NCBI GenBank assembly: GCA_015523565.1
Contig: WAKA01000052.1
Span: forward strand, 1-16,732
Direction of reading: 5' to 3'
DNA: 16,732 nt
Source: Candidatus Heimdallarchaeota archaeon
Lineage (GTDB): Archaea > Asgardarchaeota > Heimdallarchaeia > Heimdallarchaeales > Kariarchaeaceae
The translations under genes were made by a program, and so were the position numbers. Shown one piece after another: positions 1 through 12,125 of the stretch. The notes beneath the pieces were generated by a model, which was not told the DNA's origin, made no database searches, and was given only the letters and a program-made list of their open reading frames with translations. Positions within the stretch are counted from its first letter, which is position 1; every line of letters starts with the position of its first letter.

Positions 1-448
1 TACCTGCTCTCCCGTTTCCAGCAACAAAAAGGAAATGACAGGGTGGCATTTGGCTATGCTAGAGTCAGCAGTCATAAGCAAAGATCTTGAAAGGCAGAAG
101 CAATCGATACAGAATTATGCATACAAGAACGGATATGGCGGATGCCGGATTTTTGTAGATATTGCTTCCGGTTTGAACGACCAAAGAAGAAACCTGAAAA
201 GGCTTATCAAGGCTGTTGCAGTATTTCCGCCAGAGGTGGTGATTGTCACCTACCACGATCGGTTGGCAAGATTTGGCATCTCTCTGATCCGGCAGTTCTG
301 CGGACTTTTTGGTACAAAACTCGTCTCAATTCACCAAAAAGAGGATCGTCCGGTGGAACAGGTTCTTGTTGAGGATGTTATTGCCATCATGACCTCCTAT
401 GCGGGGAAATTGCATCGGCGACGAAGAGTTCCAATTACCTCTTCATGA
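1..448 (+). pseudogene. tnpA: IS607-family serine recombinase/transposase TnpA, 5'-partial and split by a frameshift at ~79-85
   Basis: Frame 1 from base 1 reads YLLSRFQQQKGNDRVAFGYARVSSHKQRS* (catalytic YARVS at 55-69, stop 88-90). Frame 2 continues KDLERQ...DIASGLNDQRRNL...YHDRLARFG...LVEDVIAIMTSYAGKLHRRR, all typical IS607 TnpA motifs. The ORF-track N-terminus (MTGWHL...) is the wrong frame. Confidence 0.88.
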
Positions 449-481
449 CTTTTTGTACTAAACCATTCCATTACATGTTGT

Positions 482-3394
482 ATGGGACGACAAACTCCTT
501 CAACTTTTCCTTGGATAAAAAAGGAAGAGGCGGATTCCCACTTCACCCCTAGAAAATGGGGGTGGAAAGCTTGGATTGGCCGCCATCTGCTTGGGATAGT
601 GGTCATCTATGCCTATATCCTTTGGAATTTTCCTCAATTCGCCCCTGATTTTGATCTGTGGCTGCGTAAGATAAGACTTGTTGTGTCGCAGCATGGAGTG
701 GACATTGTCGTTTGGTTGTGTCTTCTTTCTTACAGGTATCGTATTCGGTTCAGCTATTGGCAAATGACAATTCGCCCATTGACTTTGACTTGGCAGACCG
801 AAGTGGCAGTACTTGTTGAATTTGCTGCAAAGATGGAACACCCCCTACCTTTTGCGTCCTTTGCCTCAACCATTGGGGCAGAGCTTAGTTATTGGATCCT
901 TCATGATATCCATCAGTTCTCCTATCTGGTTGCCTACCGCAGAACCCGGCGATTTTTTCCCTATTTGCCTTTAACCCTGAAGCATCAGATTCTGAGCAGT
1001 CTCAAGTCGGTGGCCGCCCAAGGACGGACGGTTCCATTCAGAAATCTGCCTCGGCGAGTGAAACGCCTTGACTTTGTCCATGTACCTGACCTGAATGACC
1101 TGTTCCAGAAGCTTGTTCTCCTCAATCCTCAGGGTCGATTTGCATTTGCAGTGCTTTACCGCTTCGCCAAAGTTGATCGGATCATTACCGGGGAAATGCT
1201 TACTGCCACGCGACAGGTCAACCACATTCCGTTGGTTCGCATCCAGTGTTGCTTGTGGGCATCAGAAAGAGCCACTCGAAATCAATTGAAAGGGCTAATC
1301 AGTGGTGTGACAGAATCAAGGGCTTGGGTTTGGCCCAAGCTTCATCTTTTCCAACCCGAATTGTTTCCGCTCCCATTTCCTCCCTTCTTACCTCAGTCCG
1401 CGCGAGCGAGCCAAGGTCACAAAGGGACTCAAGTCGGTTATGTGAAGTTGAAGAACACCAAGGTTGCTCCGTACCGTCTTGAACCGGAAGACCTGTATCA
1501 CGGGGGAGTCATTGCAGGGGCCATCGGCATGGGAAAAACAACGTTACGGCTGGCTTTGACTGATTTGCTTCTCCGTCATGACGTCAGGATCATTGATTTT
1601 GATCCCAAGGGTGATACTGCCCGTTCTCTGCATTTCAGGCAGTTTGGAACCCCTCTGAAGCCTGGAGTCAATTTTGTGCACAACCTGTTCAGCAAACCGG
1701 CCAATGTGTCCTCTCATGATTTTACTTCCTTTCTGTACAACCTATTGTTGGACGTAATTGGACCGGATGTAACCCCTCCTCAGCAAAAGTTACTGTTTGA
1801 GGCCATCGACCGGGTGGTTGCCCTGAACGGCAACTGTTTGGATTTTCTAAGGGAGATCACCTTTTTGGGCATCCAACAGGGGCAGAGGCGAAAAGGGTTT
1901 CAGCGTCAAACCGCACAAGCGTTGGAAGCCAAATTTGCTTGGATGCATGGGCCATTGCGGGATGTCTTTTGGACGGAGGAAAGTGATTTGACAGAGTCAT
2001 TGTTTCAAAAATCAGTGTTCTTTGACCTTTCCAAACTGTACTCCTTGGTGCCCCTGCCATTGATCCGACTTTTCATCAATTTAGTGGTGTTCTATATCAA
2101 TTTCAGCAACTTGGCCCAACAACAGGGGAAAGTTTGTATCACCTTGGACGAGGCCCAGCTCTTCATGCCCCGAACCCATGGTGACCTGAGCCGATTGGAG
2201 CAATCAATTGTCACCTTGCGTGAGGCAGGGGTTTTTGTGATTGCATCAGGGGTGGATACTGCATTGATGAGCCGAGTATTGCTTGATGTCGGGTTTGTGG
2301 CGCAGTTTCGAAGCGGTTCTCGCGAACTTAGATCGGTACTAGAGGCACAGGAAACGGACTATCAGGATCTGCAACGGCATGAATGCCTTGTCAGAAGGCT
2401 ACTCAAGGACGAACAGCTTCTGAAAATCGAGACTATTCCCTTTGAAGACGAGAAGGAACCGCGGTTGATGACCGTTCGAAGTGCCTCCCTTCTCCCCCCC
2501 TTCCAAACAGAAGACCGTTTTGTCCGTTTGTGTGAATTACTGGTTCGTATCCCTGAACTGGAGGGATATTCGTGGACTGAATTGAGTCGCAGATTGCAAA
2601 AGCATGGACGGTTGTTTGATGGTGTTGCTGAATCTCCGTCACTGTTGGAAAGCCAATCCCCAATCGATCAACATCTGCTTTTGGCAGCCAAGCTTTCCGA
2701 ATTGCCAATCAGGGAGGCACTTCCTCTCCTCGGCACCAAATCCCTGAGGATGCTCAAAGGTGAACCGATTGAAATTAGGCTTGATCAATTTGAGGAACAG
2801 AATGAAGACAAAAATGACATAGGACCTGACCAATTGGGAAAACTAATTGGTATTGATGACCTGTTCAAGGAATTGAAAGAAGACAACTTGAATGACTCCT
2901 TTGAACAGAAGGAAAGGAAACCCGATAAGTTTGAGGAAATGAAACCGCTACAAGAAACTCCCCATAAGTTCCATAAAGGTGCAAACAAAAGTTGGCGAAC
3001 TTTGAGATCGACAGGCTACCGGCACATGTTTGTGCTCTGCAAGTTCAAGAAGGCATCTCTCTATTTCAGGAAATGTCAAAACCTAATAGGCCAAGATGAA
3101 AAACAAAAAGCAATCATAGACCTTTTGCTTGTAGAGAGTCTGGTCTTGGCCGGCCAACTCACACAAGCCAAAGAAGAGGCCTATCGGCAGTATCAGAGCA
3201 ACCCGAAGAATGCGGTGGCCAGTCATCAGTTTCTTATGCTTTCATATCTGCTGAATGAATTTGAACATGTGCCAAAAGTGCTTAAAGATCTGTATAAATT
3301 AAACCAAGATGCAGCCCAAGCTCTTCTTCCTCTGTTTCCCGTATCCATCCGGCAGGAATTCAGGACATTAAATAATAAACTGGAGAATATTTAA
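482..3394 (+). CDS. Membrane-anchored HerA/VirB4/FtsK-superfamily (DUF87-like) P-loop ATPase with C-terminal TPR-like helices
   Basis: 970-aa ORF with N-terminal hydrophobic segments (LLGIVVIYAYILW; IVVWLCLL). Walker A GAIGMGKTT at 1517-1543, HerA/VirB4-type IIDFDPKGD, VFFDLS, Walker B ITLDEAQ at 2138-2158. An acidic linker is followed by a helical-repeat-like tail (KFKKASLYFRKC...AGQLTQAKEEA...PKNAVA). Confidence 0.8.
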   Translation: MGRQTPSTFPWIKKEEADSHFTPRKWGWKAWIGRHLLGIVVIYAYILWNFPQFAPDFDLWLRKIRLVVSQHGVDIVVWLCLLSYRYRIRFSYWQMTIRPLTLTWQTEVAVLVEFAAKMEHPLPFASFASTIGAELSYWILHDIHQFSYLVAYRRTRRFFPYLPLTLKHQILSSLKSVAAQGRTVPFRNLPRRVKRLDFVHVPDLNDLFQKLVLLNPQGRFAFAVLYRFAKVDRIITGEMLTATRQVNHIPLVRIQCCLWASERATRNQLKGLISGVTESRAWVWPKLHLFQPELFPLPFPPFLPQSARASQGHKGTQVGYVKLKNTKVAPYRLEPEDLYHGGVIAGAIGMGKTTLRLALTDLLLRHDVRIIDFDPKGDTARSLHFRQFGTPLKPGVNFVHNLFSKPANVSSHDFTSFLYNLLLDVIGPDVTPPQQKLLFEAIDRVVALNGNCLDFLREITFLGIQQGQRRKGFQRQTAQALEAKFAWMHGPLRDVFWTEESDLTESLFQKSVFFDLSKLYSLVPLPLIRLFINLVVFYINFSNLAQQQGKVCITLDEAQLFMPRTHGDLSRLEQSIVTLREAGVFVIASGVDTALMSRVLLDVGFVAQFRSGSRELRSVLEAQETDYQDLQRHECLVRRLLKDEQLLKIETIPFEDEKEPRLMTVRSASLLPPFQTEDRFVRLCELLVRIPELEGYSWTELSRRLQKHGRLFDGVAESPSLLESQSPIDQHLLLAAKLSELPIREALPLLGTKSLRMLKGEPIEIRLDQFEEQNEDKNDIGPDQLGKLIGIDDLFKELKEDNLNDSFEQKERKPDKFEEMKPLQETPHKFHKGANKSWRTLRSTGYRHMFVLCKFKKASLYFRKCQNLIGQDEKQKAIIDLLLVESLVLAGQLTQAKEEAYRQYQSNPKNAVASHQFLMLSYLLNEFEHVPKVLKDLYKLNQDAAQALLPLFPVSIRQEFRTLNNKLENI

Positions 3395-3396
3395 CA

Positions 3397-3437
3397 AGAC
3401 ATAATTGCCAAACTTCCAATATTAGACAATTATGTCT
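3397..3437. repeat. Perfect 11-bp inverted repeat (AGACATAATTG-N19-CAATTATGTCT)
   Basis: Arms at 3397-3407 and 3427-3437, starting 2 bp after the ATPase stop codon and ending 2 bp before the first array unit. Confidence 0.85.
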
Positions 3438-3439
3438 AT

Positions 3440-3715
3440 GCACTTATGGTTATACCTTCGTGGCAAACCTAGTGCCCCTTTAGTGTCTTACTATACCTTC
3501 GTGGCAAGTAAACACCCATGCACTCAAGGATACACCTTCGTGGCAATCCTAGTGCTCCTGCACTCATGGTTATACCTTTGTGGCAAACCTGGTGCCCCTT
3601 TAGTGTCTTACTATACCTTCGTGGCAAGTAAACACTCAAGCACTCAAGGATACACCTTCGTGGCAATCCTAGTGCTCCTGCACTCATGGTTATACCTTCG
3701 TGGCAAACCTGGTGC
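3440..3715. repeat. Tandem array of 7 hairpin units with a conserved 16-nt core TAYACCTTYGTGGCAA (period 41/39/40; higher-order period 120 bp)
   Basis: Cores start at 3451, 3492, 3531, 3571, 3612, 3651 and 3691. Each is flanked by complementary arms. Type A: GCACT..GGT/ACC.(A/G)GTGC. Type B: (A)GTGT.TTAC/GTAAACAC(T). Type C: GCACT..AGGA/TCCTAGTGC. Order A-B-C-A-B-C-A. Confidence 0.93.
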
Positions 3716-3798
3716 AATCTGAAAAAGGTGAAAACAAATGAACACAATATCTGAACTCCTCACGGAACTGACATTTTGTCAGATATTGAACGGCAACT

Positions 3799-3805
3799 GG
3801 AGGTG
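3799..3805 (+). promoter_or_regulatory. Shine-Dalgarno motif GGAGGTG for the TnpB-like gene
   Basis: GGAGGTG lies 6 nt upstream of the in-frame ATG at 3812, favouring 3812 over the TTG at 3776 as the start. Confidence 0.7.
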
Positions 3806-3811
3806 CGGTAT

Positions 3812-5611
3812 ATGGAAACATTGACCTATGATGTCCCTCTGAAGTTTCCTGACCGTAAATTGAACAAGCTGGCACGAGCCAAACTTCAATCTCTTCTAGA
3901 CAGAAGCCTTGACATCCTCAATACCAAAGTTGTCTGGTATCGGGCCCTTTGGGTAACCAGTCCTCATTTTGTTCCGCAATTAAAGGCGTTACGAAATCAG
4001 AAACTGTTGATCAAACGACGAAAAGGGCAATCCATATCAGGGACCATGTTCAAGGCAAGCGTTCTGCGCAATGAACTCAAAGGGGTGATCCCCAACCATG
4101 CCGCCAACCTGAATGAATCAGTGTATCTGCATGCGCTTTCAACTGCCGCCGGTCATCGCCATCGGTTGACAATAGCCAGAACAGTGGTCAAGCAATTGAC
4201 TCCGTTACGCTATACGGAACTGTTACTGTTCGGCCAAACCGATAAGTTGATTTCAGTCATTGTTGATCAGTTCAACTACTCTTGGCTTGGAGCGAAAGTT
4301 GTTCTGAAAGGCATGGCTAAGCGGATGCAGCAGTTGAGCCCGGTGACAATCACCTCTTCTGTGACACTGCCGGATCCCAAGGACTTTGCCAATGCATTGC
4401 ACCAAGAAGGGCTCATCAACTCGCACCATGCCCAGCACAAGCTTCAAAGGCTTCTTATGCTGGCCAATTCTGTCGAGTTCGCAGGGCATCTTCAATGGTG
4501 GCTACAGCAGGCATCTTCTGGCAATGATTGCTGGAAGTTGACCAAGAAGCTGAGCAAAAGGCTCGGAATTCATTCCAAGGATCGGCTGTTTATGCGCCTG
4601 CTCAAGCACTATCTGGCCTATCTTCTTCTTCGGCCCTCTGTCCCCAAATTTCGTGCCGGTGATCTTATCACTACCCCAGTCTACAAGCGCACCACGATCT
4701 GGTTGGTAATGGGGAGCAAGTACGTAATCAAACGTCCGGGTAATGCCTCAACTATAAGGCAAATGATACTGGACGGCAAGGATATTGAGCTGCATTTCGG
4801 CTACAAGTACAAGATTCCCGTGAAAGGCTTGCTTAAGGTCCATCACAAGATGAGGCAGATCTTAAAAACCGGAGATCTGCGATGCATTGCCCTTTCAATC
4901 AACCCAAAAAACAATTTGATCCGTGCCCAATTGATTGTTGACAGAACTGACTTCCGCATCCACCTGCGAAAATTGAAGGTTCCAAAGGCAAAAGTTGTGG
5001 GAATCGATCTGAACAAGATCGGGAAGCACATTGTCGCTTTTTCCATTCCCTATACTGATCCCGGACTCAACAAACTCTGCGCCAAATATTGGCAGTACAA
5101 GGACCTGATCAGGGAGCTGCAAAGCAAACTGGATCGCCAGCGACGTCCCAATCCCCGATTGCATGAGCAAATCAGGCAATTGCATCGTAAGCGAAAGGAT
5201 ATTCGCAGAGCAATCCATAACATGCTGGTACCGCTGATTGCATCTGTCGTGGCTAGTAGTGGAGCAGAGACGTTAGTTATGGAACGCCTCCATATGAAAC
5301 CTCATGGACTGAAGAAGGGATTGGCTGAAGCGGTAAACAGCATGCCCAAAACGGGCTTGCAACTCCGACTGAAACAAGCCCTTCCCAATGTGGAAATTGT
5401 GTCAATTGATCCATGGAAACCTGCATTTAAGATCCATGCTAACTGCGGTGGAAAATTGGATCGAAAAAAGAATTGGCACTATCCTCCATGCAGCAAATGC
5501 AAAGCAGAGGTCAACAGTCATGAAAATGCCGCAAAAATGCTGGTCAAATATTACTTAAGCTCTTCAACAATCCAGCAATTCCTCTCGTCGCTTACCGGGA
5601 GAAAGTCCTAA
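3812..5611 (+). CDS. tnpB: Large TnpB/Cas12-like RuvC + zinc-ribbon protein (~599 aa), possibly catalytically altered
   Basis: Very basic protein. RuvC-I VVGIDLN (D at 5006), bridge-helix-like coiled region (IRELQSKLDR...LHRKRKDIRRAIH), RuvC-II LVMERL (E at 5282), VSIDP, Zn ribbon HxxC...CxxC (5435-5500), RuvC-III-like NSHENAAK. Co-oriented downstream of IS607 tnpA. Confidence 0.85.
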   Translation: METLTYDVPLKFPDRKLNKLARAKLQSLLDRSLDILNTKVVWYRALWVTSPHFVPQLKALRNQKLLIKRRKGQSISGTMFKASVLRNELKGVIPNHAANLNESVYLHALSTAAGHRHRLTIARTVVKQLTPLRYTELLLFGQTDKLISVIVDQFNYSWLGAKVVLKGMAKRMQQLSPVTITSSVTLPDPKDFANALHQEGLINSHHAQHKLQRLLMLANSVEFAGHLQWWLQQASSGNDCWKLTKKLSKRLGIHSKDRLFMRLLKHYLAYLLLRPSVPKFRAGDLITTPVYKRTTIWLVMGSKYVIKRPGNASTIRQMILDGKDIELHFGYKYKIPVKGLLKVHHKMRQILKTGDLRCIALSINPKNNLIRAQLIVDRTDFRIHLRKLKVPKAKVVGIDLNKIGKHIVAFSIPYTDPGLNKLCAKYWQYKDLIRELQSKLDRQRRPNPRLHEQIRQLHRKRKDIRRAIHNMLVPLIASVVASSGAETLVMERLHMKPHGLKKGLAEAVNSMPKTGLQLRLKQALPNVEIVSIDPWKPAFKIHANCGGKLDRKKNWHYPPCSKCKAEVNSHENAAKMLVKYYLSSSTIQQFLSSLTGRKS

Positions 5612-6860
5612 CGGATAACTGGTCGATTTGGCTAGATTTAATGTAATGCGTTGAGACTGTGAAAAGTCCTAGACTATCTGACAAAACGATTGTTATATTG
5701 TTCATGCCAATATTCAAGTTATCAAGGGAGAAGGAGATGGAGGCGTTTGAGATCCAATTTCCAGAGTCAACAACTATGCCGTTCATGAATAATTGATATT
5801 GATTGGGGGATGTATCCATGGCGATCCATTCGATTGAGGATTGATCCAATTGGCTTTCCTCGATTTGTAGGTCGTCAGGTTCCGAGATGATTTGTGGGGG
5901 TTGATTTGTGACAGTCAACCAAACAGTATGTGTTGCCGCATTATGTCCCATGTCTTTCACCAGCAGGGTGACGTTGTAAATCCCAGGTTCAAGTCCAGTC
6001 AATGTAATGGTGTTGGAGAGACCAGACACCCAAGTTCCATAGTCAATTTGTTCACCATTCAGGAACACGTAATACATACTAGGGTCTTCATCAGTTGCCA
6101 CCCATTCGATAACAGCAGGGGAAAATTCGGCAACGGTGATGTTGTTTGCTGCAGAAATTGTCGGGGGAGTGTAGGGATGCGTTTCATGAAAATCAAAAGT
6201 GTTGTTGAGAGCCGTGTTGTTGATCATTTCCACGTTGAAGGGATTTTGGAGGAAAAAGCCGTAGCCATTGAACGTGGCAAAATTGTCCATGACAATTGAA
6301 TCATTGATGAACAGGTTGAATCCCTTGATGTCATTGAAGGCGGCCTCGTTGTTGACAATTGAATAGTTGCTTCCCATTGCATAAATTCCGTCATTTACGT
6401 TATTGTATGCAAAATTTCCTTGGATGGTGGTGTTTGTCATGCCACTGAAAGACAATCCAATCTTATTGCCAAATGCCGTATTATTCATGACACTAATGTC
6501 CATCCCGTCAAAAAGATTAATGCCTGCAAAATCGCTGTTTTCTATTGAGTTGTCAGCAAAAGTGTTTTGGAAACCTTTCATGCCGTAGATTCCACTGGAG
6601 GTGATGTTTGACAGGAAATTGTTGGAAATAATGGTGTTGTTTGCATTATTCAAGTAAATGCCATTGTCGTTTTCATATATTTTGTTTCCCATAATTTGTG
6701 AGTGTGAAATGTTGGTCATGCTGAGACTAGTTACCGAATTGATGATTTCATTTGACAGGACATTAATGTTTTCACCATAGGTGACCAGAATGCCATGTTG
6801 TGCATTTTCCATGGAAGATTTCAATACTAAACAATGGATGAATTGAAACTCAGTCAGCAC
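5592..6860 (-). CDS. NosD/right-handed beta-helix repeat protein with two Ig-like repeats; probably a truncated fragment of a cell-surface protein
   Basis: Asn-rich repeats (NKIYENDNGIYL, NNTAFGNKIGL, NNEAAFNDIKGF), then two ~90-aa repeats (PPTIS...IEWVATDEDPSMYYVFLNG...GTW...GIYNVTLLVKDMG / PPQIIS...IEWIAMDTSPNQYQLFMNG...GNW...GMNNITIVLSDSLG). No signal peptide or membrane anchor; start uncertain. Confidence 0.75.
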   Translation of the reverse strand: MLTEFQFIHCLVLKSSMENAQHGILVTYGENINVLSNEIINSVTSLSMTNISHSQIMGNKIYENDNGIYLNNANNTIISNNFLSNITSSGIYGMKGFQNTFADNSIENSDFAGINLFDGMDISVMNNTAFGNKIGLSFSGMTNTTIQGNFAYNNVNDGIYAMGSNYSIVNNEAAFNDIKGFNLFINDSIVMDNFATFNGYGFFLQNPFNVEMINNTALNNTFDFHETHPYTPPTISAANNITVAEFSPAVIEWVATDEDPSMYYVFLNGEQIDYGTWVSGLSNTITLTGLEPGIYNVTLLVKDMGHNAATHTVWLTVTNQPPQIISEPDDLQIEESQLDQSSIEWIAMDTSPNQYQLFMNGIVVDSGNWISNASISFSLDNLNIGMNNITIVLSDSLGLFTVSTHYIKSSQIDQLSVRTFSR

Positions 6861-7319: not shown

Positions 7320-9338
7320 TTATTTTTGTTTATTTTTTCTGTATACCAAGATGATTAGGGTGAAAGTGCCGACCAATCCAATATTGAGCGGAGAGAAATT
7401 CTTGTTGGATCCAGAACCATGGAAACCGTTCACTGCATCCTCATAACTGACTGCAGGAGCTCGGTATGAAACAACAAAAGGACCCCTGAACCCAGTGAGG
7501 AAGAATTCATTTGCGGCATACATTCCTTTGTCAGTATAGAAGGTATAGTCAGTGACATTCCAAGATCCATTTGAGAGACGGATTTCACCAGCAGGCATTG
7601 GAGCCATGCCATTTGTTGCACCTGCCGACTTTTGCATAGGGGGCAGGGGGATGTTGTCGGAATCCACATTTCCTCCAGTCACATGGTCTTCAGAAAGTTG
7701 GAAGCCAGAGTTATCCACAGCAGTTTCAAAGAATTGGATGAGGCGGTAGTGGGCAAGAGGGGATGCCTTTTCATCTGCCAATCCCATGATGCTTCTAAGT
7801 CCTGCAACGACGCTTGCAATGCTTGCGGGGTTGTAAACTTGTTCGGTTGCATCTTCAGAGCTTCTGTAAACCATGTTGTCATCATCCCACAAATTGTTTT
7901 CAATGAATGAGAATGCAGACAGTGCGGCATCCTTGAATTTGGTATCTCCTGTAAGGTTATAGGCAGTGATCAGTCCCCTTATGGCACTGCCTTGGGTTTC
8001 AATTGTTCGGGCAGTGGTGCTTGGAGCATTCTGTGCAAGGTCAAAGCTGTTGTCAAATCCGCCATCGTTCCTTTGCAGGTTATCGACAAGGAAATTTGCT
8101 TGATCACGGATGAATTGGGTTTGGTTCATGGCGTCATTTGTTGCGGAACTCCATTGTGCCAAGGCAATGATGGCTTTCGAGATGGTTTTGGTGCTGGCTG
8201 TTTTTCCTGGAGTGAGTGTTCCAGAGTTATAGGAAGCAGTGTCAACAAATGTTTTGGCAGTTGCATCCCAATGCCAGTTTTTCATGGTCAGCCATGCGAT
8301 TTTTGCCAATCCCTTTCCAAGGTCTGCGGGACCAGGCTTTCCTGTTTCTGCCATCGATCCAGGGAATGGTTGGGCACCAGTTCCATCTCCTCCGAACACA
8401 TCATCCTGTTCGGGGGCATTTGCCCATTCGAAGAACTTGGATGCCATCCAGAGCAGGGACAATTGATCCCATAAATTGGAGCTGGAATCAACGATGGAGT
8501 AGTTTTCGGGCATTGGCATTTGCATGGACCCTCCTGCGGGGACTGTCATTTTGGTATCATAGGTGTATCTATGTGCAAAGTAGTAGTTCCCTGCATTTGT
8601 AGCAGGATCCAATTGTCCGTCCATGGTTCCGTTGGCAATGTTCACGGCAAGGACATTCTTGAGGAACTGCATTTTGTTGATCAATTCAGCAGTGAGCACG
8701 AACCCCCTGAATCCATCGGTTGTGTAGTCATCAGGATTCACTTTGCCCTTGCCTAATGCCACATTCCCTTGAAGTGCTTTTTGGCTGGAATCAACGGGAC
8801 TGTCAGTCAATTCATTTGTGTCGACCAAATGGTTCTTGCTGAAGAATTCCTCTGCCCACAAGACATTCTTGAGTCCGCTTTGTGCCAATGCGGCGGGATA
8901 TAAGTCTCGGTCGGCAGTACTCAAATCCCAACGGAGTGTGGCAAAATCGTTTGGATTATTTGTATCCACAGCCTGTGAAAAGAATGGTTTTGCAGAGGCA
9001 AATTCCGCGAAAATGGGAAACGGATTCATTGGAGGTGATGCATGGGTGATGTTTGCGGCCATTTTTATCTTCATCATCATCATGCTGAGGTTTCCTTGAA
9101 ACACAGGGCTGAACACCATATGGAGACCTGCACCCGATCTCATTTCAAGGTGTCCCAGATAGTAGCGTGAATACCAATAGCCCTCATTGATGACTTCTCC
9201 CCAACTTAATGTGGGTTCATTTGTTGTTGACGCAGCGTTGCTTATTTGGACAGTGCCAATCAGCAATGAAAGAATATAAAGCAACACTGCCGCGGTGCGT
9301 AATTTATTCCAGATAAAGGTACGTTGTATTTTTTTCAT
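7320..9338 (-). CDS. Secreted, C-terminally membrane-anchored protein with probable alpha/alpha-barrel (six-hairpin-like) C-terminal region; function unknown
   Basis: 672 aa. Signal peptide (MKKIQR...AAVLLYILSLLIG...SNA). Helical-hairpin motifs (ANFLVDNLQRNDGGF; AYNLTGDTKFKDAALSAFSFIENNLWD). C-terminal PL-hydrophobic helix-RKNKQK sorting-like tail. Confidence 0.75.
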   Translation of the reverse strand: MKKIQRTFIWNKLRTAAVLLYILSLLIGTVQISNAASTTNEPTLSWGEVINEGYWYSRYYLGHLEMRSGAGLHMVFSPVFQGNLSMMMMKIKMAANITHASPPMNPFPIFAEFASAKPFFSQAVDTNNPNDFATLRWDLSTADRDLYPAALAQSGLKNVLWAEEFFSKNHLVDTNELTDSPVDSSQKALQGNVALGKGKVNPDDYTTDGFRGFVLTAELINKMQFLKNVLAVNIANGTMDGQLDPATNAGNYYFAHRYTYDTKMTVPAGGSMQMPMPENYSIVDSSSNLWDQLSLLWMASKFFEWANAPEQDDVFGGDGTGAQPFPGSMAETGKPGPADLGKGLAKIAWLTMKNWHWDATAKTFVDTASYNSGTLTPGKTASTKTISKAIIALAQWSSATNDAMNQTQFIRDQANFLVDNLQRNDGGFDNSFDLAQNAPSTTARTIETQGSAIRGLITAYNLTGDTKFKDAALSAFSFIENNLWDDDNMVYRSSEDATEQVYNPASIASVVAGLRSIMGLADEKASPLAHYRLIQFFETAVDNSGFQLSEDHVTGGNVDSDNIPLPPMQKSAGATNGMAPMPAGEIRLSNGSWNVTDYTFYTDKGMYAANEFFLTGFRGPFVVSYRAPAVSYEDAVNGFHGSGSNKNFSPLNIGLVGTFTLIILVYRKNKQK

Positions 9339-11477: not shown

Positions 11478-12125
11478 TCATTTGTTTTCCTCAAATGTGA
11501 TGGTAAGTGTCCCCAACTCAGTCTCACCTTGGAGGATCGTCAATTCATGAGTTGACAGGACAACATGAAGGATGGGGTCTATTCCATTTTCTGTGATAAT
11601 CTTGTCAATTGGAGCGTTCAATTTGCGTGCCACTTTTTTCATCATGTCCAAGTGATGGGGGGTCAATTCCTTTCCAGACCGGGTCACATATTGTACTTTG
11701 CGTTTCATGGTTCTTTTTTGGGGCTTCCAGTTAATTTTTTGGAGAAGTTGGTAGACATAATTTCGGTGAATTACGATGCCCATTTTCTCTGTGATGAATT
11801 GATGGATCAATTGCACAGTCCATCCATTTTCAGGGTAGCCGAAGTCTTTGGGGTCATGTTTCAAAGCTTCCTTCAGTTCAGCGAGATTGACCTTCTGTTT
11901 TCTTCCTCGTTTACTTGGTGGAGACAATATCCCATTTATTCCATATTTCTTGTACTTTCTCAACCAATAGTAAATTTGATCCCGATTTAGGAGGAAGATT
12001 TCACAAAGTTCGTCAACCTTTTTTCCTTTCAGGTAATGGATTACAAGAAGTATTCTGAACTTTATTGCATGATTTTTTTCCTTTTGGCAGATATCCACAA
12101 GTGTTTCGAGTTCAGATGGCAACAA
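11478..12125 (-). CDS. IS630-transposase-like tandem HTH/winged-HTH protein lacking a recognisable DDE domain
   Basis: RILLVIHYLKG...IYYWLRKYKKYGINGI...RGRKQK...P.DFGY...WTVQLI...I...GI......V..LL...W matches the IS630 N-terminal DNA-binding region. The remaining ~75 aa show no intact DDE triad. Confidence 0.7.
   Translation of the reverse strand: MLPSELETLVDICQKEKNHAIKFRILLVIHYLKGKKVDELCEIFLLNRDQIYYWLRKYKKYGINGILSPPSKRGRKQKVNLAELKEALKHDPKDFGYPENGWTVQLIHQFITEKMGIVIHRNYVYQLLQKINWKPQKRTMKRKVQYVTRSGKELTPHHLDMMKKVARKLNAPIDKIITENGIDPILHVVLSTHELTILQGETELGTLTITFEENK

Follow-up and report, generated by a model that had tools for sequence, protein, structure and literature searches.

Why does an IS607-type transposon carry a large P-loop ATPase gene and a hairpin array between its recombinase gene and its TnpB gene, and what could the ATPase do there? 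The question is raised by the start of contig WAKA01000052.1 (C52) of a Candidatus Heimdallarchaeota archaeon (assembly GCA_015523565.1, 3.6 Mb, 90% complete), of which 16,732 nucleotides, hereafter the window, were analyzed. The nearest relatives of its proteins are labelled Heimdallarchaeota or unclassified archaeon. Among the Asgard archaea, Heimdallarchaeia is the class nearest to eukaryotes. IS607/TnpB elements are generally regarded as minimal, and the rare cases of cargo in them are poorly described. We propose, with a probability of about 0.6, that the locus is a cargo-bearing IS607/TnpB variant, whose captured ATPase is kept as an accessory DNA motor for the spread of the element.

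Anatomy, ends, and mobility of the element

The original prediction named four co-oriented parts, namely tnpA, an ATPase gene, a hairpin array, and tnpB. As judged by profiles, open reading frames (ORFs), and fold models, all four are present on the plus strand within positions 1–5650 (Table 1). The tnpA–ATPase, ATPase–array, and array–tnpB junctions were each bridged by contigs from two vent runs, which are probably the source samples of the assembly. A misassembly or one-off insertion could be suspected, given the repetitive array and the position of the window at the start of a contig. However, because contigs of both runs bridge each junction, the locus anatomy is real, and diverged independent copies (L100 and L064) that share the order refute this explanation. 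Of the span 1–5650 originally assigned to the element, the right end at 5650 was retained, whereas position 1 is a contig end lying ~180 bp inside the element. The left end, located with contigs C34, C9, C221, and C109, gives a length of ~5.8 kb, with only three protein genes between the ends.

The recombinase was assigned to the expected family, in that the IS607 TnpA catalytic domain at 35–448 matched NF033518 with 102 bits (cut-off 110) as well as the Pfam Resolvase model. Its helix-turn-helix (HTH) part was found in C34 and L064 and lies beyond the contig end in the window copy. Function, on the other hand, cannot be ascribed to the window copy, which is a frameshifted pseudogene with a 5-nt deletion at ~81 and with the catalytic YARVS motif (Ser codon 67–69) out of frame with the remainder. 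Sibling tnpA copies carry an 8-nt deletion in the HTH region, and those of the related copies L064 and L066 contain a stop or frameshifts.

Junctions were compared across two genomes and one metagenome. At the nine left junctions the sequence is ACC(G); the ten right junctions terminate in CG, beyond which the DNA varies. Empty-site alleles were sought to define the ends, and two were obtained in the assembly itself. In C19, the left flank of C9 is joined to a right flank known from run X1, and C67 is uninterrupted at the position where run X5 shows the right end. These junctions and empty sites indicate that insertion is scarless at ACCG, with CG as the core, and that it occurred at several sites. 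The empty site of the window copy itself was not found in congeners. No circle junction was listed among the assembled contigs compared, which speaks neither for nor against excision as a circle.

Most copies are mini-derivatives joining ~80 to 5513, and the depth of this joint is ~3-fold that of the full element. They all keep the last 140 nt, the right end. Three short hairpins in it are conserved and show compensatory changes, which makes it a likely candidate for the omegaRNA scaffold, although its folding z is only about −1.4. Two left-end-only relics (G000:C221:25701-25816 and C217:1-85) both stop at the same internal CCGT in tnpA, which suggests that a pseudo right end was used. The view of the locus as an IS607-derived cargo transposon was thus borne out by its ends, the empty sites, the several insertion sites, and the linkage of ATPase, array, and tnpB in an independent diverged copy.

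Cargo ATPase, hairpin array, and TnpB

Conservation of the gene order was sought in independent copies. In L100, from an independent JGI metagenome, the element occupies another site. It retains the ATPase (61% amino acid identity), the inverted repeat and, in the corresponding position, three array units; its tnpB has been shortened by an internal deletion, and its right end is that of the window copy. L100 and the window copy are ~70% identical in nucleotides, with saturated synonymous sites (pS 0.83) and a pN of 0.22 and, in the core, of 0.15. Two further copies come from a hot-spring population: L064 contains the left end, tnpA, and the ATPase (1–367) at 90% nucleotide identity, and L002 contains an ATPase fragment fused to tnpB via a 9-nt microhomology. 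The order ATPase–array–tnpB–right end (L100), and tnpA–ATPase (L064), is thus conserved within a narrow lineage.

The ATPase core (residues 315–660) was confidently modelled and matched HerA, VirB4, and TrwB about equally, with 11–15% identity to the solved structures. Walker A (residues 346–353), Walker B (DE 556–557), and Arg580 are intact, and the protein also has an acidic linker and a helical C-terminal tail. Two moderately hydrophobic segments at the N-terminus (KD19 1.58 and 1.63), with stronger counterparts in orthologues, are probably transmembrane helices. The predicted HerA/VirB4-type ATPase was therefore supported in fold and motifs, and its membrane anchor is probable. For the ATPase, comparison with L064 gave a dN/dS ratio of 0.31; for TnpB, comparison with a copy of 95% identity gave 0.21. 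As judged from these ratios, both intact genes are kept by purifying selection.

The ATPase belongs to a host gene family present in 59 of the 83 genomes of the class, mostly in one or two copies each. In two congeners, this chromosomal gene for a membrane-anchored HerA/VirB4-like ATPase (L068:7654-9549 and L070:7260-9770) is found between or next to two cdc6 genes, a locus that falls in a contig gap of the source assembly. The host family may represent an Asgard CedB-like DNA transfer gene. The element ATPase nests in the clade of the host family (99/97), where it shares a long branch with L100, and its identity to the chromosomal copy of a same-genus congener is ~33%. This fits an old capture from the host family followed by divergence, although the tree by itself does not identify the donor. 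A search of viral contigs for the ATPase returned nothing.

Nesting within a host family would also be expected if the ATPase were a captured extra copy of the host's membrane ATPase, of benefit to the host and with no role in the life cycle of the element, and the array a by-product or the terminator or regulatory region of the cargo. Copies often lose the cargo, and rare cargo including a helicase has been reported for the serine-recombinase TnpB branch Ser-3 (PMC10691335), both of which are in line with passive carriage. Nevertheless, the low identity to the congener's orthologue and the long branch stand beside conservation with the element across 70% DNA identity and at different sites, and the array covaries and holds the same place. 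We thus consider purely passive carriage improbable.

The array consists of seven 40-nt units in the order ABCABCA with a 120-nt higher-order period, and each unit has a near-constant 16-nt core and variable closing stems. It folded better than shuffled sequences on both strands (z −2.5 on plus and −7.3 on minus). In the closing stems, both bases differ in 6 of the 14 pairs, and 84% of the cells were paired, compared with 32–40% when the alignment was slid; as the units are mutually related, these percentages are not a probability. G-U pairs favoured the minus strand in the core and the plus strand in several variable stems. A covariance model recovered arrays only in the window and L100, and Rfam gave nothing meaningful for the array, the right end, or the leaders of the sister elements described below. 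The exact two-core pattern had no match in genome contigs and matched five unrelated repeats in metagenomes, and a single-core search across 47 genomes stayed at control level. A guide array of the CRISPR type V or TIGR-like kind was ruled out because the array has no spacers; its variable parts are self-complementary stems in a 120-nt repeat. The array core resembles a short motif of the L182 and L067 leaders, but the resemblance was attributed to chance, as L066 lacks the motif and its structural context is a different one. Separately, the middle array unit of L100 resembles the predicted circle junction over 10 nt. A similar upstream ORF of the 28-codon type is apparently present in L100, as read by eye.

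The TnpB of the window folded as TnpB/Cas12f (pLDDT 84), with Cas12f and TnpB as the top Foldseek matches, and matched profile NF040570 (E 1e-9); it has a split RuvC domain and an HxxC/CxxC zinc ribbon. Its RuvC residues are D399, E491, and H570, such that the third catalytic Asp of the D-E-D triad is replaced. This His was invariant in 20 of 20 aligned homologues, and the same Asp-to-His change at RuvC-III (RIIIr-4) has been described as a rearrangement predicted to keep activity (PMC10691335). The length of ~599 aa was confirmed, but the protein is not enlarged: strong homologues of 570–690 aa occur in ~40 genomes of this Asgard order, making this an ordinary size for the family. Most homologues lie directly behind tnpA (L014, L023, L025, L028, L080, and L081) or alone, and no repeat array was found upstream of the other homologous tnpB genes examined, so that linkage to an ATPase or array does not apply to the family as a whole. 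As side observations, four proteins of 1,200–1,780 aa (P0049, P0051, P0052, and P0054) have a C-terminus of the same TnpB family, and a 10-nt tandem repeat directly follows the hairpin behind a homologous tnpB at a contig end (L001:2955-3043).

A second motor cassette and the proposed role of the ATPase

The hot-spring genome locus L066 contains a sister element, whose left end and tnpA are ~85% identical in nucleotides to those of the window element. Its tnpA is followed by a 739-aa DinG/XPD helicase and, behind a TATA-like box, by a structured leader of 270 nt (folding z −4.5, sense strand); TnpB and a right end that terminates in CG complete the element. The L066 TnpB is only 32% identical to that of the window. 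Because L066 shares the left end and tnpA but carries DinG and another leader, one set of IS607 ends carries two different motor–leader–TnpB cassettes, which hints that these transposons recruit motors to aid their spread. L067 contains DinG, the leader, and TnpB without ends of the L066/window type. The ~270-nt leader family, undescribed and with no Rfam match in L066 and L067, precedes a TnpB sub-clade with or without DinG and could be a 5′ guide or scaffold RNA. Deletion derivatives of the L066 element were also seen at L128 and L133. A pair of long ORFs at L067:799-5121, of 856 and 561 aa and neither with a Pfam match, runs divergently from the DinG–TnpB cassette, possibly as part of a larger mobile element.

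Two unrelated DNA motors in the same slot before a structured leader, next to related TnpBs (L066, L067, and the window), bring in a different explanation: the His-RuvC TnpB would bind or nick its target and recruit the HerA-type or DinG motor to unwind or resect it, with the array as a scaffold loading several copies. CasDinG of type IV-A CRISPR and HerA–NurA are motors of this kind. The replaced third Asp and the purifying selection on both the ATPase and TnpB agree with it. However, the His is invariant family-wide, motor-free members included; L182 combines a leader of the DinG type with TnpB yet lacks a motor gene; and a membrane anchor fits poorly with a soluble R-loop helper. Such RNA-guided recruitment is therefore unlikely. 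The original proposal of a new system in which TnpB works with an ATPase is also not supported as a general property, since most relatives are motor-free and L182 has a leader without a motor; a TnpB–motor partnership may at most apply to a small sub-clade. A broader idea, which we put forward tentatively, is that an Asgard His-RuvC TnpB sub-clade repeatedly recruited DNA motors and a 5′ structured RNA or array as RNA-guided modules, interchangeable on IS607 ends. If true, the motor modules would parallel type IV-A CRISPR at the level of a transposon, or amount to a minimal OMEGA element able to transfer itself.

We favour a cargo-bearing IS607/TnpB variant with the ATPase as an accessory motor. 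In IS607 biology, TnpA excises a double-stranded DNA circle and then integrates it. By analogy, TnpA, supplied in trans for the window copy, would excise the circle and integrate it at ACCG. TnpB would load the right-end RNA with the right flank as its guide and recognize the empty donor site, with ACCG as the predicted transposon-associated motif (TAM), whereupon the element would be copied back. The ATPase would have been captured long ago from the host membrane-anchored HerA/VirB4-like family, and selection would keep it for the spread of the element. Its likeliest route would be to act at the membrane, moving excised circles or resected DNA from cell to cell with host partners; because of the membrane anchor, DNA handling or transfer appears likelier than a role as a TnpB subunit. 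The array would serve tnpB as a structured leader that binds protein, at the position taken in sister elements by a different structured RNA of ~270 nt, and would most likely control TnpB expression or nucleate a protein–RNA complex rather than serve as a guide array.

Several observations weigh against this proposal. Because mini-derivatives without the ATPase outnumber the full element, the ATPase is dispensable in cis for movement. An intact tnpA was not found in the assembly, which is 90% complete with collapsed repeats, and the element has no pore, pilin, or relaxase gene. The linkage is common to three samples, but the ATPase and TnpB are both intact only in the window copy. Furthermore, the TnpBs of the window, L066, and L067 group together (99/97 and 100/99), but long branches meet in this clade.

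Beyond the element, the window contains at 7320-9338 (−) a 672-aa protein that is secreted or anchored in the membrane and has no Pfam match, and at 11478-12125 (−) a 215-aa ORF resembling, by eye, the HTH part of an IS630-type transposase.

Table 1. Features of the window element, its surroundings, and its sister cassettes (window positions unless a locus is named)
Feature	Position	Strand	Basis or remark
tnpA 3′ part, IS607-type serine recombinase, pseudogene	1..448	+	Profile match and sibling contigs
Cargo ATPase of HerA/VirB4/TrwB type, 970 aa	482..3394	+	Fold, motifs, purifying selection
Inverted repeat with 11-bp arms, opening the structured spacer	3397..3438	.	Kept in L100
Hairpin array, 7 units of 39-40 nt	3439..3718	.	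Repeat, folding, covariation
Upstream ORF, 28 codons, with its own GGTGA ribosome-binding site	3738..3824	+	Overlaps tnpB start
TnpB, 599 aa	3812..5611	+	Profile, fold, dN/dS 0.21
Right end; its omegaRNA-like scaffold overlaps the end of tnpB	5513..5650	+	CG core 5649-5650
Right flank, host DNA; predicted omegaRNA guide segment	5651..5670	+	Junctions; analogy with IS607 TnpB (10.1101/2023.11.20.567912)
Host beta-helix/PKD surface-protein gene, insertion target of the element	5592..6860	-	ORF now terminates inside the right end
Complete sister element with frameshifted tnpA and His-RuvC TnpB	L066:4342-9398 (G055:C60)		
~270-nt structured RNA family	L067:7365-7670, L182:1318-1602, L066:7205-7485		TATA-like box upstream

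Comparison with known systems

Among the closest known systems are IS607-family elements with TnpA and TnpB/omegaRNA, such as the IStron of C. botulinum (10.1101/2023.11.20.567912), which shares with the window element an HTH-serine recombinase tnpA, a tnpB near the right end, a dinucleotide core, a scarless empty site, and a structured right end overlapping tnpB. The target motif has 4 nt with the core inside in both, TGGG/GG in the IStron and ACCG/CG in the window element. Unlike the IStron, the window element has a 2.9-kb ATPase cargo and a hairpin array between tnpA and tnpB and a 599-aa TnpB with His at RuvC-III, and Rfam detected no group I intron in the element regions searched. The compact tnpA–tnpB layout is absent, with 3.4 kb between the two genes; cargo is a reported exception that leaves the family assignment standing. 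Altae-Tran et al. 2023 described rare cargo, including an ATP-dependent RNA helicase, in Ser-3 TnpB elements (PMC10691335). The window element resembles the Ser-3/RIIIr-4 elements of that study by its cargo and its Asp-to-His change, a likeness of features and not a branch assignment. The main text of PMC10691335 names no HerA/VirB4 ATPase, DinG, or hairpin array, and in the literature searched, HerA/VirB4 cargo, a DinG counterpart, and a hairpin array were not found in IS607/TnpB elements.

With CedB/TedB, TrwB, and HerA (PMC9905601), the ATPase shares the fold, the Walker A/B and arginine motifs, and the probable N-terminal transmembrane helices. However, the window element has no CedA/VirB6 pore, pilin, NurA, or relaxase gene, and assignment to a Ced/Ted or conjugative (integrative and conjugative element, ICE) system was rejected, as only three protein genes lie between the ends. 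An aloposon (PMC8813620) was likewise rejected, its giant tandem genes, tRNA integration, and MinD/ParA ATPase having no counterpart here.

Type IV-A CRISPR with CasDinG, TldR, and Cas12k/Cas12m resemble the window element in combining an RNA-guided protein, an altered RuvC, and an accessory motor nearby. In contrast, the window TnpB has two of three catalytic residues intact and a His found family-wide, and the locus has no spacers, cas genes, or Tn7 genes. The defined ends, the predicted TAM, and the empty sites make cleavage by a His-RuvC TnpB directly testable, and they allow asking whether an OMEGA nuclease can be coupled to a helicase or translocase that would help it home or spread between cells. 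Compared with these systems, the window element works like an IS607/TnpB element apart from its layout and the third RuvC residue, and what appears new against the literature searched is a HerA/VirB4 or DinG motor with a structured leader or array as the cargo of an IS607/TnpB element.

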